Of a stretch of DNA of 64,000 nucleotides, positions 27,000 through 39,459 are shown piece by piece (position 1 is the first letter of the stretch; each line of letters starts with the position of its first letter). The stretch lies in the sequence record OR167180. One strand, 5' to 3'. The notes under the pieces were generated by a model. That model saw only the letters and a program-made list of their open reading frames with translations, did not search any database and had not been told where the DNA came from. A program made the position numbers and the translations under genes. The stretch is from Escherichia phage MIZ4.

Positions 27000-27481
27000 T
27001 TTGCTAAATCATTGCAATATTTTAGTGCCTTAGTTTGAAATTCTGCGCTGTTAAGTTCTTCATAACGGTCATAATCACCGTTTAATGCTGCCTTTCTTGC
27101 TTCTTGCTCTATCTGCATGTCAGACATGATAATACAGCGATCCCGTGCTTTCATCTTCTCAAGTTGTATAGACTCTTCTTTCTGCTTGCGCAATTCTTCT
27201 TGACGCTTCTTTTCTTCTTGTGCTTTCTCTTCCCGCGCTTCTTTGATTGCATCCTTGAACATCTGCGTTTGTGGTGCTAAACCAACTTTAACGCGATCCA
27301 CGTCTCGACGTTCCATTTTAGAAATAAAGCATGATTCGATCTGATCATCACTTGCATATGCTGCTTTACATTCACGAAGTAAGAAAACCGGATCTGATTT
27401 AGCATTCATCATAGCTTCCATGTTGGCACAACCAGTAAGCATGAATGCAGCCGCAAGACCAATCAGTTTAATCATTTTCAT
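26996..27481 (-). CDS. Predicted lipoprotein (161 aa) with charged coiled-coil region
   Basis: N-terminal signal peptide ending in lipobox LTGC; Lys/Glu-rich helical middle. Confidence 0.65.
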   Translation of the reverse strand: MKMIKLIGLAAAFMLTGCANMEAMMNAKSDPVFLLRECKAAYASDDQIESCFISKMERRDVDRVKVGLAPQTQMFKDAIKEAREEKAQEEKKRQEELRKQKEESIQLEKMKARDRCIIMSDMQIEQEARKAALNGDYDRYEELNSAEFQTKALKYCNDLAK

Positions 27482-28302
27482 TTAGTCACCTCACCGAAAA
27501 TTGTAAATTGTCTACGATTCTCATCGCCGAAAGATTCTACTACGTCGTTTACCTTGACGCAAGTCCCGCGCGGTAAAATTACTTCACATTCGCAAGGGTT
27601 CCATGCAATTGACCCAACAACAAAACCTTTATGATCTTTTACGTCAATTACCCATGATACATTACAAGAATGTTGCATCTTTCCGGTCATTGATTCATAT
27701 CGATTCTCACAATAAAGGCTAGTGCTGTTTGATAGCCATCCTCCAAAGATGATTGGTGTCATGCTGGTTGACACAAAGTTTTTAAAGGTAAATTCCTTAT
27801 CTTCAATAATACGCTCTATTGTCTGAATGTCAAGATGTTGACCGCGATAAAGAGTACCGTTTAACTTTTCGGTTTTATCCATGACACAATCCATCAAATC
27901 AACAATCTCTGATATCTCATCGGTCATGTCTTCTTCCCCTAAGAGAGCACCATTTACCCATTCGTATTGTTCAGACACATAATCACAGATTGCATTATAT
28001 TCTGCTGGGGGTATGTTGTTATGTTTGTAATGTTTGAATACATTATCTCCAAAGTCTTCGGAGTGTACTTCATACATCACATTAATGATTTTCTTGACAA
28101 ATCCATAATCTTGTGTCTCGCGCTCAAGGAAGCGGATAACCTTCACATAATCATCAAAGTTAATCTGATCGCTGATCATCTCAGTGATCATGTAACCATT
28201 AATCCCCTCAATGTCATATGTTTCAATATAATTGTCCATACGTTCCATCATTGATTCGCGTGATTCTTCCGAAAGACGAAAATCCTGTAATTTCTTGAAC
28301 AT
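27478..28302 (-). CDS. ADP-ribosyltransferase, short Alt paralog (274 aa)
   Basis: R-S-E triad motifs LYRG, FVSTS, CECEVILPRG; alignable to the C-terminal domain of the adjacent Alt. Confidence 0.75.
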   Translation of the reverse strand: MFKKLQDFRLSEESRESMMERMDNYIETYDIEGINGYMITEMISDQINFDDYVKVIRFLERETQDYGFVKKIINVMYEVHSEDFGDNVFKHYKHNNIPPAEYNAICDYVSEQYEWVNGALLGEEDMTDEISEIVDLMDCVMDKTEKLNGTLYRGQHLDIQTIERIIEDKEFTFKNFVSTSMTPIIFGGWLSNSTSLYCENRYESMTGKMQHSCNVSWVIDVKDHKGFVVGSIAWNPCECEVILPRGTCVKVNDVVESFGDENRRQFTIFGEVTK

Positions 28303-28380: not shown

Positions 28381-30432
28381 TTACATTTTAAATTTATCTG
28401 GCATTGCGTCTACAGATACCAGATCAGCGATAAGCTGACGTAGAGTTGCCTTATCTGCTTTCTTACGTTCGGTTTTAGCTTCGCTAATGAAGCTGGAGAA
28501 AGACAGGTCAGAAGCAGGTTTAACAACACCCTCACGGATGAATGCATCACCGTCCGCGATCATTTCGCCAGATTCTTGTAATGCTGCCAGTTCATTTTTG
28601 TTCATAATATGTGCCTCAATGTAATAAGTTTCTTGTGAATCTGTCGATGCCGTAGCACGAGTTACCGTATCAAAGGATAACACAACACCGCGAGGAAGTA
28701 AAATCTCGCATTCTTTGTAAGCAAATGCTTTGTTACCTACTGGCAAGACAGGGATGTTTTCCGCGCCAGCAATGGAGAAAGCAACATTAGCGCCACCTTC
28801 ACCGCGAGAGCCAGCCATAGAATCAACACCAGCAACGGCACTAGCCACGTTTGCATTCCAGCCGCCAAAAATGTTAGGTGCAAGGGAAGTGCTCACATAG
28901 TTTTTAAAGTAAAACGCTTTTTGCTTACGTGCAGTTTCCCACATTTGCGACCGGAAGTCCATACCACGATACAGAATAGTACCCGGATCAAGTTTAACGC
29001 CATAGTTGGAGAAGGCATTATCCAGTGCATCGCACATCTTGACCAATTCTTCTGGATCTGAGATTCCTTCAAACTCTTCCAGCTTACGGTCGGTTAGGAA
29101 GTTGTTCATATTGATGTATGCTGCATCGGCATATTCGCTCAACACAAAACCTTCCGCGCCTGGCAGATCAAGATCAATATCTGCCATCATTTCACCCATG
29201 TTGCTAGCAATTGCTTCAAACATACCGGACGCAACATTACGAAGGGCATCGGTTTTAATCTGGGTGATATGACTACGCAGCATTTCAGCTTTTACATCTG
29301 CTGGCATAGACTGGTCTACTCGATCCATTGCCAGGGCGGTGATCTTGTTTTCGAATACTTCCTCGCTCATGATTTCTTTTAAGCGTTTGATTGATGCTGC
29401 GATAACTTCCGCAGACAACGGATCATATTGATCCTGAACTTTTACCAGTTCGCTTACTGCGTATTTTGCATCTGCTTCGCTTTCAAAAATAGTACGCATG
29501 AAACCATAGCGAGTGATAATATCACTTGTCCAGTCATTCAGAGAACGGGCGGTTGAACGTTCTAAGGCTTGACGGTCAATCAGAGTATTAAACTGTTTCT
29601 TAGGTTCGGCTTCGGTGATATCTTCTTCCGGTTTAAGATTAATTTTTTCTGGATGATTCACGTAGTCGCTGTTATAGGTCGCTTGAGTTTTCAGCATTTC
29701 TTCTTTAGTCAAACGAGATTTAGCCGCTACGCGTTGTTCTGCTTCCGCGTTTCGTTCTTCTTCTGACACAAGACTAGCCGCATATGCCTCATCTTTAGTC
29801 AGAGATTCACCCGTAGCCTTAGATACCCAGCGATCACCTAAATCACTTTCTACTTTGGTGAACAAGGATTCATCAAGTTTAATCCCTTTAATCTTATCAA
29901 TCGCCATCCCGCGACGTTTGACAACAACTAAAGCGATCTTTTTGCTGGTCATTACTTCCTGCTGGAATACTTCAAACTTCGGTGTACGACGCACCAAACG
30001 CTCTATAACGCGCTTAACCAGTTCGGTCTTACCTTTCATGCGGGATACGTTAAAACGGAACATAACAGCGTCTAATTGCGCTTTACGGGCTGTTTCCATA
30101 ACCACATCAAACGCACTTGCCATAACTGCAATCGGGTTATCGCCTAGACCATTTTTAAGTTGTACAATACGACCGCTTTTGTTCATTTCGCACAGTACAA
30201 CATGTGCGGTTTTGTCACCCATACGAATGATTTTAGGTGTTTTGTTGGTGAAGTTACAAAGACGGACAATCACATCTTTATCGCGTGTCTGTACTGCAAA
30301 AAGCTGTTTAGGATTCTGCTTAGGCTTTAAGCACTGTACCGGAGCAATACTGCCAAAGTTTTCTTCCTCTTCCGTCAACAGCCATTTCTCGAAAGATTCA
30401 ATCATTAGATCGTCGATTTCTAAGTTAAACAT
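28381..30432 (-). CDS. alt: Alt ADP-ribosyltransferase (683 aa)
   Basis: Size and position as T4 Alt (682 aa); motifs ILYRG, YVSTS, ECEILLPRG. Confidence 0.9.
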   Translation of the reverse strand: MFNLEIDDLMIESFEKWLLTEEEENFGSIAPVQCLKPKQNPKQLFAVQTRDKDVIVRLCNFTNKTPKIIRMGDKTAHVVLCEMNKSGRIVQLKNGLGDNPIAVMASAFDVVMETARKAQLDAVMFRFNVSRMKGKTELVKRVIERLVRRTPKFEVFQQEVMTSKKIALVVVKRRGMAIDKIKGIKLDESLFTKVESDLGDRWVSKATGESLTKDEAYAASLVSEEERNAEAEQRVAAKSRLTKEEMLKTQATYNSDYVNHPEKINLKPEEDITEAEPKKQFNTLIDRQALERSTARSLNDWTSDIITRYGFMRTIFESEADAKYAVSELVKVQDQYDPLSAEVIAASIKRLKEIMSEEVFENKITALAMDRVDQSMPADVKAEMLRSHITQIKTDALRNVASGMFEAIASNMGEMMADIDLDLPGAEGFVLSEYADAAYINMNNFLTDRKLEEFEGISDPEELVKMCDALDNAFSNYGVKLDPGTILYRGMDFRSQMWETARKQKAFYFKNYVSTSLAPNIFGGWNANVASAVAGVDSMAGSRGEGGANVAFSIAGAENIPVLPVGNKAFAYKECEILLPRGVVLSFDTVTRATASTDSQETYYIEAHIMNKNELAALQESGEMIADGDAFIREGVVKPASDLSFSSFISEAKTERKKADKATLRQLIADLVSVDAMPDKFKM

Positions 30433-35674: not shown

Positions 35675-35703
35675 AGTATAGGGGATCGGTGATCCCCTGT
35701 CAA
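35675..35703 (-). promoter_or_regulatory. Sigma70-type early promoter cassette
   Basis: Identical to the cassette at 34512 (TTGACA-GGGGATCACCGATCCCC-TATACT). Confidence 0.6.
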
Positions 35704-35711
35704 CAACTTTT

Positions 35712-36023
35712 TTAAAGTTTTTCCATGATAACGGTCATAATTACATCTTCTGCGCGAGCGGTCAGATTATCAGCGTCAGGATGTGGGCGGTTGGTTGTTA
35801 CAGAGATAACACCGTTGCGCACTGGTTTGATATTGATATCAAGATGATCCGCGAAACGTTCGCCATTTACAGAATGAATTTTGGTGTTAAATTCTTTTGC
35901 CAGTGCCTTGCGAACTTCACGAATCAGGGTAGCGTTTTTCAGTTGGTTCTCCGCGCTCATGGTCTTCTGGGTGTTCATGGTTCCGTCGAAGTCAATCATT
36001 GGCAGCGTTACGATGTATTTCAT
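35712..36023 (-). CDS. KEFN-family small protein, member B (103 aa)
   Basis: Paralog of 32402..32689; conserved GGAGAATCAAAA leader. Confidence 0.65.
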   Translation of the reverse strand: MKYIVTLPMIDFDGTMNTQKTMSAENQLKNATLIREVRKALAKEFNTKIHSVNGERFADHLDINIKPVRNGVISVTTNRPHPDADNLTARAEDVIMTVIMEKL

Positions 36024-36068
36024 TTTTGATTCTCCGTTTAAGAAAGTGTGTTTCGTTTTGATGTGTGT

Positions 36069-36098
36069 ATTATAAGGGGATCACCGATCCCCTGTCAA
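36069..36098 (-). promoter_or_regulatory. Sigma70-type early promoter cassette
   Basis: TTGACA-GGGGATCGGTGATCCCC-T-TATAAT (18-nt spacer). Confidence 0.6.
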
Positions 36099-36110
36099 CA
36101 ACTTTTTGGA

Positions 36111-36587
36111 TTATTTTTCTTGATGCTCGCGCTCATACTTTTCGAAATAAAATTCTACTGGCTGATCGTGGATTGAAAGCAAGCCAAAGCGTTTAGCCGC
36201 TCGCAATCCCATATTGCGCTGAATGTACTTCTGGAAGTTCTCTCGTATACACTTACGCCAGTATTCTAAGCCCATACAGCTTTTATAAAGATTGCATTGT
36301 ACACACGCCGGATTCATGTTATCAAGTATATCATGTTCCGGTTTATGCATTCCTACAACCTTATACTTCCACGATCCATCATCATTACGGGCAATTCGTC
36401 CATTTTCATCATAGACTACCTTTGAGCGTCGCAATACTGGTTTGATGTGGTCTGCGTGCCAGCGATCCCCTAGTTCCTCGCCACAATAGGCACAACGTCC
36501 ACCGTATTTCATTTTCAGGATCTGGCGTTGCTCTTTCTTTGACAATTTTTTAGGTTTAGGGGCTTTCGCCCCTTCATTATCACACAT
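36111..36587 (-). CDS. HNH endonuclease (158 aa)
   Basis: CAYCG ... WHADHIKP ... NMNPACVQCN; overlaps the 3' end of the ligase gene by 8 nt. Confidence 0.75.
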   Translation of the reverse strand: MCDNEGAKAPKPKKLSKKEQRQILKMKYGGRCAYCGEELGDRWHADHIKPVLRRSKVVYDENGRIARNDDGSWKYKVVGMHKPEHDILDNMNPACVQCNLYKSCMGLEYWRKCIRENFQKYIQRNMGLRAAKRFGLLSIHDQPVEFYFEKYEREHQEK

Positions 36588-38076
36588 CGAATACCTCTTT
36601 TACTGTATTTGCTGTGGTCTTGTCGTAGCGAATACGTTTGATGATTGGGAGAAATAAAGAGAACTCCGGTTCATCTTCTTTACGTGATTTGCTGCGAATG
36701 TACCCGTTGCATGTCATCTCAATGACTTTTCCAATCAGGTTATGACGGTCAGCCCATAACATTTCTCGGTCGAGTTCATTTCGACGATCGAACGGAATTA
36801 CACGTTCGATACCATCATCACCTTTTTCGGTTGTGGTGTCGGTTAATCCCGATCCGGTATTAGTCATCATTCGTCCGCACGCACTACGGACAGTAAAACC
36901 GCCTACCTTATTAGGATCTTTACTATGCGGATATACATCAACAATTTCCGCGTCGAAGTCAATAACTTCTTTAAATTTAACCTGATCTTTACTACGGCGA
37001 TCTTCAAATACACCATGTAAATTTTTAAGGATAATACCTTCTAAGCCCATGTTGACATAACGATGATATACTTCGCGAGCTTCATCGATATTGTTAACTA
37101 CGGTATTTTCGATTATCTGAACACGAGGATCGTTAAGTTCTTCAACAATCTGTTTTAGTTCTTCGAATCGATCTTTATATTGCTTCGTTGCTTTCTCGTT
37201 TCCGTAATACACATCACGGTCGATAACATCCCAGACAGTGTAAACAATACATTGGGCTTCTTCTTTTGGAATAGTTCCTTTCAGTGATTTGTTGAGGATA
37301 CCATTTCCGGTCTGACGATCTGCAACAACGGATTCTTTCACCGCTTCCGCTACTGGCGTTAATGGCATTTCCTCTTCTTCAAATATCCATGACAGAGTAC
37401 CATCATAAACGCTCTCAACGAAGTTCTGCGCTGGTGTTTGCGAAAGGGTAGGCATATATACCAATTCGCCATCTAGAACAATTCCACGGCCTCGTAGACG
37501 CTCTAAAACCGCAAACAAATCATCAAGCCCTTGATAGGTATTACCTGAACGGGTATAGATTGATAATGTTTCCCCGTCAATATCAGCCATACCACGAGCG
37601 CCATCGCTTTTAAGTTGTGCATACGCCGGATACTTGATATTAGCAATAGTCTTATCAGAACATGACGATGCCAGGTGGCACGGTTGCTGGGGGATCAGTT
37701 TCTTCCATACCTTGTTTGCAGTGGTAGCGGAACAACCGCATTCCAGGTCACGATTCAGGACCATCATTGCAACTTTAGCATCATCCTCTGACAAGCAAGT
37801 CAGAGTATCGGTAACTAGCTGTAATGCTGCGTTGCCAGTTACTTGACGCGTGGCAAGTTTATTTTTAAAGACCTGTAATGCACCGGATAAAGACAATACA
37901 GACGAATAACGCGATGGTTTATCGTATTTCTTTACGCCAAACGTAACCTGTTTGCAATATGCCAGATAAAAGCATTCTTTCAGCGTTTCATTGCTCGCGG
38001 ATTCTTTCAGAATCTTTTCTTTCAGCGATGTTTTGTCTGTTGCTGCAAGCTGATTAATGATATTAAGAATTGACAT
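36580..38076 (-). CDS. 30: ATP-dependent DNA ligase (gp30)
   Basis: Matches T4 DNA ligase (active-site KSDGAR in YAQLKSDGARG, LDGELVY, GLEGIILK, RDLECG); start moved to ATG 38076. Confidence 0.93.
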   Translation of the reverse strand: MSILNIINQLAATDKTSLKEKILKESASNETLKECFYLAYCKQVTFGVKKYDKPSRYSSVLSLSGALQVFKNKLATRQVTGNAALQLVTDTLTCLSEDDAKVAMMVLNRDLECGCSATTANKVWKKLIPQQPCHLASSCSDKTIANIKYPAYAQLKSDGARGMADIDGETLSIYTRSGNTYQGLDDLFAVLERLRGRGIVLDGELVYMPTLSQTPAQNFVESVYDGTLSWIFEEEEMPLTPVAEAVKESVVADRQTGNGILNKSLKGTIPKEEAQCIVYTVWDVIDRDVYYGNEKATKQYKDRFEELKQIVEELNDPRVQIIENTVVNNIDEAREVYHRYVNMGLEGIILKNLHGVFEDRRSKDQVKFKEVIDFDAEIVDVYPHSKDPNKVGGFTVRSACGRMMTNTGSGLTDTTTEKGDDGIERVIPFDRRNELDREMLWADRHNLIGKVIEMTCNGYIRSKSRKEDEPEFSLFLPIIKRIRYDKTTANTVKEVFDV

Positions 38077-38542
38077 TTTCACCTCGTTTTGTTAAACGTT
38101 CACGAATATCATTGAGGATACTACAAAATTCCGATTCAGTCAATATAGTCTTTAACGGATCAGTTCCACCTATACTATGACGCAATTTCTTATTTCCGGT
38201 AGCGAGTAATGCTTTACAAAATTCTGGGTTATTCCGTGCCATCGTAACAAATGCCAGATGTACCAGTCTGTAATAATGCTCACTCATTCGATGAATCGGG
38301 CGACCCTGAAAATATAACATGTGATTCTCTATCTTTTCGGTCCTTCCGGTTCTTTTTGCTTTGCCACCGTGCATCAAAAAGATTTCTCTTTGCTTTTCTG
38401 GATTCTTGAATCTTAATCCCTGTAAAAATCCTTCTGTGCTGTTAATATCGCAACCAAATAGACGGAATGGTCTTTTATTGAAATTGCTCAATTCACCCGA
38501 TGGATAAGGTCCACCCGCATAGATATCAATTTCAGAAGTCAT
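38063..38542 (-). CDS. NADAR/YbiA-like (DUF1768) protein
   Basis: 159 aa; GELSNF...PF, KALLATGNKKLRH resemble E. coli YbiA (GDFSNF, ALLLATAPAKLVEH). Confidence 0.55.
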   Translation of the reverse strand: MTSEIDIYAGGPYPSGELSNFNKRPFRLFGCDINSTEGFLQGLRFKNPEKQREIFLMHGGKAKRTGRTEKIENHMLYFQGRPIHRMSEHYYRLVHLAFVTMARNNPEFCKALLATGNKKLRHSIGGTDPLKTILTESEFCSILNDIRERLTKRGENVNS

Positions 38543-38696
38543 TGAAACTAATCTCGCTAATCAGAGAGAACGGATCATAATCGTCACTAGGAATATCGAT
38601 AGTAATCGAGTGAGGGTTTACCCATACACCAAACTGGTCTTCTTCGGTGAATACTTCTGTATGGATTTCGTGGATGTTTACATTCATAGTTTTCAT
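38532..38696 (-). CDS. Hypothetical small protein (54 aa)
   Basis: Translated by eye (MKTMNVNIHEIHTEVFTEED...); overlaps the NADAR start by 11 nt. Confidence 0.4.
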   Translation of the reverse strand: MKTMNVNIHEIHTEVFTEEDQFGVWVNPHSITIDIPSDDYDPFSLISEISFNDF

Positions 38697-38745
38697 AATA
38701 AAATTCCTTAATAATCAATAACTTACAAAATCATATAGCCAAAAT

Positions 38746-38770
38746 ATAGGCGGGATTATTACCCGCCGTT
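38746..38770 (-). terminator. Hairpin terminator after gene 31 (minus strand)
   Basis: GGCGGGTAATAATCCCGCC followed by T-rich sequence. Confidence 0.45.
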
Positions 38771-38779
38771 TAAAAATCA

Positions 38780-39103
38780 TTAACCGTAAACTACCACAAT
38801 ATTCTGTTTGTGCGTTACAGTCCATTTCAGGTCGATCTCTTCTTCCTTCTTAACGCCGTTAATAACGTCTGGATGAGGAACTTTATTCATCTTTCCATGT
38901 GGCAGTAAAACAGTTTTACCCAGCAATTCTTTATCTACCGTCTCGCCAATATCAATAATCTTACCTACCAGCGGAATCTCACCCATAGTGCGCTTTTGCT
39001 CAATAATGATCCCCATAGAGCTTTTTACTTCGGTCCCTGCGCTTTCTGCTTTAGCTTCGATAATTACATAATCACCAAGTGCTTTAGGAGTTTTAACGGT
39101 CAT
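38780..39103 (-). CDS. 31: Co-chaperonin GroES homolog gp31
   Basis: 107 aa; GDYVIIEA...SGLIIG...GEIP pattern as T4 gp31/GroES. Confidence 0.8.
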   Translation of the reverse strand: MTVKTPKALGDYVIIEAKAESAGTEVKSSMGIIIEQKRTMGEIPLVGKIIDIGETVDKELLGKTVLLPHGKMNKVPHPDVINGVKKEEEIDLKWTVTHKQNIVVVYG

Positions 39104-39144
39104 AATTTTATTACCTCTTCAAATCAATACAGTTTAATGATGAA

Positions 39145-39459
39145 TTATTTATAAATTTCGACGATCTGCGCTGGAGTCAGCCCGTCTACATTAATCAGAC
39201 TATCAAGCCCAAAACTACGGAAACCTTCAACTGCAATTTCATATACTGGCAAAGATGTTTCTGATTCTTTACGCGGTTTTTCAACATTAGGAACTAACCA
39301 CTTTTCGTATGTTTCGAAAGGCATCAGTGCCGGATCTCGCGTGGCGATCATCTCGCGGACAGTACCATCTTTCTTAGTAAACTGCAAAGAGTAAGTACCG
39401 ACCGAAAACATTTTCTTTAGTGCTTCACGAAGTGCGATATTATCAATTTGTTCGGTCAT
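39145..39459 (-). CDS. Hypothetical protein (104 aa)
   Basis: ATG 39459; overlaps the cd stop. Confidence 0.55.
   Translation of the reverse strand: MTEQIDNIALREALKKMFSVGTYSLQFTKKDGTVREMIATRDPALMPFETYEKWLVPNVEKPRKESETSLPVYEIAVEGFRSFGLDSLINVDGLTPAQIVEIYK

Follow-up and report, generated by a model that had tools for sequence, protein, structure and literature searches.

A Krischvirus orthologue of T4 adfN between gene 31 and the DNA ligase gene encodes a single-domain protein with a predicted NADAR fold

The gene 30.3 locus and its product

We analyzed an open reading frame (ORF) encoding 159 amino acids (aa) that lies between the co-chaperonin gene 31 and the DNA ligase gene in a 64,000-nucleotide stretch of the genome of Escherichia phage MIZ4 (OR167180; the whole stretch is referred to as the window). 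The ORF corresponds to gene 30.3 of phage T4, which has been renamed adfN (anti-DarT factor NADAR; Johannesman et al., Nat Commun 2025, PMC11825919). A preliminary description, made from the sequence alone, had placed a NADAR/YbiA-like protein at 38063-38542. These coordinates were confirmed exactly, with the ORF running from ATG to TAA on the minus strand, and the location between gene 31 and ligase was confirmed as well, an ORF of 54 aa also being present in this interval. The order on the minus strand is gene 31, a hairpin, the 54-aa ORF, 30.3, DNA ligase and an HNH endonuclease gene. These features, together with two ADP-ribosyltransferase (ART) genes located elsewhere in the window, are as follows.

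38780..39103, minus strand: gene 31, co-chaperonin (phrog_931), with its stop at 38780
38749..38767, minus strand: terminator-like hairpin GGCGGG-TAATAAT-CCCGCC followed by the T-run TATATTTTGG (consensus match only)
38532..38696, minus strand: acidic 54-aa ORF, 'gp31.-1' in RB49 (phrog_15277), function unknown, no Pfam match
38063..38542, minus strand: adfN/gene 30.3 orthologue, ATG-to-TAA ORF of 159 aa (from the ORF listing)
36580..38076, minus strand: gene 30, ATP-dependent DNA ligase (PF01068, E 2e-22; phrog_114, E 1.3e-141)
36111..36587, minus strand: HNH endonuclease (PF01844, phrog_2118), overlapping the ligase stop by 8 nt
28381..30432, minus strand: ART, PF03496 (ADPrib_exo_Tox)
27478..28302, minus strand: ART, PF03496 (ADPrib_exo_Tox)

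The 159-aa protein is a clear member of the phage gp30.3/AdfN family by sequence comparison. It matches PF08010 (Phage_30_3, Bacteriophage protein GP30.3) with an E-value of 1.5e-39 and 135.4 bits (cut-off 36) over profile positions 2-138 of 138, and phrog_652 with an E-value of 1.7e-45. BLASTP against T4 gp30.3 (NC_000866) showed 39% identity (E 5e-31) between residues 3-150 and T4 residues 2-152, the alignment reaching the final residue of the T4 protein. The region 37500-39200 is 100% identical, at the same coordinates, to Escherichia phage MIZ5 (OR167181.1), in whose record the product of 38063..38542 is labelled as a hypothetical protein and the taxonomy is given as Straboviridae; Krischvirus (RB49 group). 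The same region shows 96-99% identity to 58 further RB49-group phage records, e.g., RB49, Phi1, JSE and GEC-3S. Compared to the sister phage KMB43, 14 synonymous and two nonsynonymous codon changes were found, indicating that the ORF encodes a protein and evolves under purifying selection. In the KMB43 record (OR525698.1) a 30.3 gene of 59 aa is annotated, and a natural truncation such as the one known from RB69 was considered. This was ruled out: the annotation covers the last 59 codons only, and the gene call is an annotation artefact, since all 159 codons of the ORF are intact, with 98% identity to the copy in the window.

Homologues of gp30.3 were identified by tblastn in 1509 phage records, with hosts including Escherichia, Klebsiella, Aeromonas, Acinetobacter and Vibrio, and an exhaustive HMMER search related 987 cluster representatives to the 159-aa protein at E <= 1e-3. 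NADAR domains of the gp30.3 type also occur in larger metagenomic relatives (P0022, P0053, P0062, P0066 and P0098), where they are found as tandem duplicates or as fusions to a calcineurin-like metallophosphoesterase, thymidine kinase, BspA-type leucine-rich repeats or an alpha/beta hydrolase (UPF0227). The length exceeds 200 aa in 71 of 161 related sequences.

The hairpin upstream of the 54-aa ORF has a perfect 6-bp GC stem and is located 13 nt past the gene 31 stop. It resembles an intrinsic terminator and may mark the upstream boundary of a gp31.-1/30.3/30 block; terminator-type sites in the region are no more numerous than in shuffled sequence. A promoter scan between this putative terminator and the 54-aa ORF yielded no convincing sigma-70-like promoter. 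The stop of the 54-aa ORF overlaps the 30.3 ATG (38542) by 11 nt (ATGACTTCTGA), and the two are probably co-transcribed and translationally coupled. The 54-aa ORF was considered as the counterpart of T4 30.4 and rejected, as there is no similarity between them. It is filed with gp30.3 in a single 90%-identity cluster of the protein collection, which may reflect fused or mis-called ORFs somewhere. At the opposite end, the last 14 nt of 30.3 (38063..38076) overlap the start of the ligase gene, whose annotated ATG is at 38076. The preliminary description had the start of 30.3 overlapping the ligase stop, which is the reverse of the actual arrangement, because the start of 30.3 overlaps the 54-aa ORF instead, and it is the 3' end of 30.3 that reaches into the ligase start. 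The Shine-Dalgarno sequence of the ligase gene (GAGGTG) sits within 30.3, suggesting that the two genes are translationally coupled.

Essentially all 59 Krischvirus records contain the HNH endonuclease gene downstream of ligase. Parts of 35700-38100, including this gene, match two to four places per genome, which fits with the other HNH genes annotated in MIZ5, and the DNA just downstream of the HNH gene is mosaic among relatives, with matches broken into two to three pieces.

On the T4 map, 30.2 and 30.1 are located between 30.3 and ligase, and 30.4-30.9 together with rIII between 30.3 and gene 31. The T4 proteins 30.1-30.9, alt.1, 61.1 and 61.2 (AdfA) were used as tblastn queries against 99% of the MIZ5 genome with a threshold of E 0.05. 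No match at E <0.05 was obtained there for 30.1, 30.2, 30.4-30.9, alt.1 or AdfA, and these were rejected as candidate AdfN cofactors in this phage; 61.1 did have matches. Among 30.1-30.9 only 30.3 was matched, indicating that it is the sole member of this T4 block retained in the lineage. The internal 30.3' ORF known from T4 is absent from the gene in the ORF listing of the window.

NADAR fold and active-site residues

The sequence-level link of the 159-aa protein to NADAR is weak. The profile search that the preliminary description had proposed as a check fell below threshold when taken alone: PF08719 (NADAR, DUF1768) scored 16.3 bits against a cut-off of 35.1 (E 0.012, residues 14-120). Pairwise BLASTP with E. 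coli YbiA gave 23% identity (E 0.008), and the NCBIfam entry 'DS32_2 NADAR family anti-phage protein' was sub-threshold (E 0.015, 14 bits vs. a cut-off of 240), which does not amount to membership. A single-sequence search of the PDB sequences returned no NADAR match. The top match in that search (phmmer, residues 45-151, E 4e-4) was a D-alanine-D-alanyl carrier protein ligase (PDB 7vhv), in the C-terminal part of that enzyme; a DltA match in NCBIfam was sub-threshold. We regard this match as spurious and probably as a compositional coincidence, because structure searches give no support for such a fold. When a profile of 88 gp30.3 sequences was searched against the PDB sequences, YbiA (2B3W) ranked first (E 3.6e-4) and the Phytophthora NADAR protein PnNADAR (8BAU) second (E 0.22).

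Membership is decided by structure. An AlphaFold2 model was made from a 12-sequence alignment, with a mean predicted local distance difference test score (pLDDT) of 94.2 and a predicted template modelling score (pTM) of 0.89. Foldseek searches of the PDB with this model retrieved at E <1 only YbiA (E 2.3e-6) and ADP-ribose-bound PnNADAR (E 6.5e-4). The model and T4 AdfN, as analyzed by Johannesman et al., share the same three structural neighbours. By its modelled YbiA/NADAR fold, the 159-aa protein is a member of the NADAR superfamily.

The motifs on which the comparison with YbiA had been based were recovered as well: YbiA of E. coli K-12 (NC_000913) contains GDFSNF and ALLLATAPAKLVEH, which align with GELSNF and KALLATGNKKLRH of the phage protein. 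The classification of De Souza and Aravind, as cited in the NADAR papers examined, distinguishes three NADAR groups by the catalytic residue in the last strand, which is Glu in YbiA, Asp in the DarT-associated BC4488 group and His in phage gp30.3. The designation 'NADAR/YbiA-like' thus holds for the superfamily, by fold and family profile, and does not hold for the narrow YbiA subfamily, since the Glu that defines this subfamily is replaced by His (H122). On these residues the protein falls outside YbiA proper and in the separate phage gp30.3 clade.

Conservation of individual residues was determined in a family hidden Markov model alignment of 162 sequences, comprising the window protein, T4 gp30.3, the 150 best representatives and hits of a word-indexed search. 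E37 aligns with the catalytic Glu of T4 (E36) and is Glu in 157 of the 162 sequences; H122 aligns with T4 H123, with His in 158. The LSNF motif (18-21), Q41, R85, T132, L134, T135 and E138 are each kept in 90% or more of the sequences. The AlphaFold2 model also contains the C-terminal helix (residues 136-157) that is lost in RB69.

Predicted function and alternative explanations

The function of the T4 orthologue has been established experimentally. In T4 and T2, adfN is necessary for growth on DarTG1 hosts, on which deletion mutants fail to plaque, and AdfN supplied in trans is sufficient for growth of RB69 on such hosts (PMC11825919). The purified protein strips ADP-ribose from DNA, the E36A and K43A mutants are impaired, and loss of the C-terminal helix by a 15-aa truncation lowers activity; the DarTG1-sensitive RB69 carries a truncated allele (PMC11825919). 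AdfN is specific for guanine adducts, and DarTG2 is unaffected (PMC11825919). T4 gp30.3 also hydrolyses guanine-ADP-ribose DNA in vitro in the study of Cihlova et al. (2024, PMC11125620), and in a transposon screen insertions in 30.3 dropped out on DarTG1 hosts alone, the gene being essential there and dispensable on K-12 (HIDEN-SEQ preprint). More generally, NADARs hydrolyse guanine-linked ADP-ribose, with an active site consisting of E43, K50 and E125 in PnNADAR, corresponding to E88, K95 and D171 in E. coli C7 NADAR (Schuller et al., 2023). They are inactive on thymine-ADP-ribose and on ADP-ribose at phosphate ends. The T4 NADAR likewise does not cleave thymine-ADP-ribose and is not listed among the NADARs that cleave cytidine-ADP-ribose; it removes guanine-ADP-ribose from RNA in vitro, less efficiently than E. 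coli C7 NADAR does.

We consider the gene to be the Krischvirus adfN orthologue, encoding a minimal NADAR enzyme whose most likely role is to remove the ADP-ribose that DarT1 attaches to guanine in phage DNA, and assign this reading a probability of roughly 0.8. Homology, fold, the active-site Glu and His, the intact C-terminal helix, synteny and purifying selection are properties of the Krischvirus gene and protein themselves, and by homology to T4 the protein would be expected to resemble AdfN in activity, substrate and anti-DarTG1 phenotype. Upon infection of a DarTG1 host, the DarT1 toxin would attach ADP-ribose to guanine in the phage DNA and replication would be blocked. The phage enzyme would bind the ADP-ribose, with the basic residue at position 44 holding the diphosphate and with the distal ribose near E37 and H122, and would hydrolyse the N-glycosidic bond between ribose and guanine to restore unmodified DNA. 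The Krischvirus AdfN would in this way act as an orphan antitoxin. That a phage copy could reverse a host ADP-ribosylation defence was anticipated in the preliminary description and has been demonstrated for the T4 orthologue (PMC11825919, PMC11125620, HIDEN-SEQ preprint). The central idea is correct but already known, since it had been tested for the orthologous T4 gene in published work.

Several observations weigh against this assignment. Full-length identity to T4 AdfN is just 39%, and the phosphate-binding Lys position (T4 K43, YbiA K55, PnNADAR K50) is occupied by Arg (R44). When the corresponding K95R substitution was engineered into E. coli C7 NADAR, the enzyme was still able to hydrolyse its substrate in vitro but failed to rescue cells from DarT1 (Schuller et al., 2023). 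AdfN is fully active only during T-even infection, which implies a further phage cofactor (PMC11825919); such a T-even factor may be missing here, and T4 30.2, 30.1 and AdfA are without a detectable homologue. The phages in the published DarTG1 set are T2, T4, T6, RB69 and Bas35-47, with no Krischvirus among them (PMC11825919), and a literature search pairing Krischvirus with DarTG found no paper.

The substitution at position 44 is the basis of the strongest alternative, namely that the NADAR enzyme has been weakened or retuned by the Lys-to-Arg change and is either a poor anti-DarTG1 factor or suited to another DarT1 variant, base or cofactor context. Position 44 is Lys in 148, Arg in nine and Gln in two of the 162 sequences, and K95R as well as the lack of detectable T4 30.2, 30.1 and AdfA speak for such a change. 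However, Arg preserves the positive charge, and K95R is catalytically active in vitro. The Arg-bearing sequences are mutually 30-60% identical, except for the window protein and the 71%-identical P0002, suggesting that the Lys-to-Arg change probably arose several times in the family. Within the 90%-identity cluster of Krischvirus, Arg is found in nine of ten sampled alleles and Lys in one mosaic allele, in a gene that is under purifying selection, and the presence of Lys in a cluster member that is 91% identical suggests that Lys and Arg are interchangeable. As K95R is active in vitro and gives no rescue in vivo, R44 appears to be a conservative substitution that is not certainly neutral; the natural occurrence of Arg and the alternation of Lys and Arg within the cluster argue against that worry. 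We therefore consider a weakened or retuned enzyme unlikely.

Because Arg is present at the phosphate site in a phage without detectable T4 30.2, 30.1 and AdfA, the Krischvirus AdfN might more specifically be a naturally retuned variant that is independent of the T-even cofactor, or that has a different spectrum of DarT1-like or guanine-ADP-ribosylating toxins. We give this only a slim chance. If true, comparison with T4 AdfN could reveal determinants of NADAR efficiency in vivo and could show why K95R separates catalysis from rescue. The Lys-to-Arg change and the absence of the T4 neighbours may affect efficiency or cofactor dependence.

A second alternative is that the enzyme acts chiefly on RNA that has been ADP-ribosylated at guanine by RNA-targeting toxins, or on soluble ADP-ribose derivatives or ADP-ribose-derived immune signals, instead of on DNA. 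The hydrolysis of guanosine-ADP-ribose on RNA by T4 NADAR in vitro fits with this, as does the activity of YbiA on small riboflavin intermediates. However, the RNA activity of T4 NADAR is below that of E. coli C7 NADAR, the only known in vivo phenotype of the T4 orthologue is specific to DarTG1, whose DarT1 modifies DNA, and a soluble substrate is not reported for any gp30.3 protein in the NADAR literature examined, which makes this alternative improbable.

The preliminary description had also suggested that the enzyme could erase marks written by the two phage ARTs in the window, so that modification of host proteins would be reversible. Both ART genes were indeed found, as PF03496 genes some 8-10 kb from 30.3 and in the same orientation, but the erasure itself found no support and is very improbable: the annotated targets of the T4 members of the ADPrib_exo_Tox family (Alt, ModA and ModB) are RNA polymerase and further host proteins whereas the NADAR substrates documented in the literature examined are all N-glycosidic base adducts, the ART genes are not adjacent to 30.3, which is conserved independently of them, and T4 can do without 30.3 on a host that lacks DarTG1. 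The two genes comprise an Alt-like ART and a second, short PF03496 ART directly downstream of it, which has no T4 counterpart at that position, T4 having alt.-1, alt.-2 and alt.-3 there. Beyond the window, the MIZ5 annotation includes another 'RNA polymerase ADP-ribosylase' at 86585..87088.

For annotation, the predicted role as an adfN orthologue means that the gene can be renamed adfN-like; MIZ5 and the majority of the 59 related Krischvirus records carry it as 'hypothetical protein' or 'gp30.3 conserved hypothetical protein'. We propose the label NADAR DNA ADP-ribosylglycohydrolase, putative anti-DarTG1 factor. If the gene is active, its product would be the sole known anti-DarTG1 factor of the phage, and RB49-group candidates for phage therapy would be predicted to resist DarTG1-carrying E. 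coli.

Comparison with known systems

YbiA (COG3236, PDB 2B3W) of E. coli is an N-glycosidase of riboflavin intermediates that has the xSNF, SxE...Q..K and LLAT..KL motifs in common with the phage protein. In the last strand it carries the Glu of KLVE, whereas the phage protein has His in KLRH. With an identity of 23%, the two also differ in biological role.

DarG1 proteins (BC4488 family, including the G. lovleyi structure 8BAT and E. coli C7 NADAR) hydrolyse guanine-ADP-ribose on DNA, as the T4 orthologue does. The conserved Glu is shared, and the position of the conserved Lys is basic in the phage protein too. DarG1 has an N-terminal extension, whereas the phage NADAR of 159 aa is a bare core domain, and its last strand carries Asp where the phage protein has His. 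The gene for DarG1 is paired with a DarT1 toxin gene, while the neighbours here are the 54-aa ORF and ligase, so that the phage protein does not classify as DarG1. With no adjacent DarT toxin gene, it is an orphan NADAR. DarG1 is an antitoxin, whereas T4 AdfN gives uninfected cells no protection against DarT1 (Cihlova et al., 2024, PMC11125620).

T4 AdfN is also among the closest known systems. The T4 genome has 30.4 upstream of 30.3, where an unrelated 54-aa ORF is found here, and an internal 30.3' ORF that has no equivalent here. In T4, 30.2 and 30.1 separate 30.3 from ligase; both are missing here, which brings 30.3 into direct contact and overlap with the ligase gene. T4 has AdfA; the phage studied here belongs to Krischvirus, outside Tevenvirinae in the record taxonomy, and has no detectable AdfA. 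At the phosphate site, K43 of T4 AdfN is replaced by R44. Both are single-domain proteins (152 aa in T4 vs. 159 aa here) that can be aligned end to end, match the same PF08010 profile, occupy the same slot between gene 31 and ligase, and have the catalytic Glu, the clade-specific His and the C-terminal helix in common.

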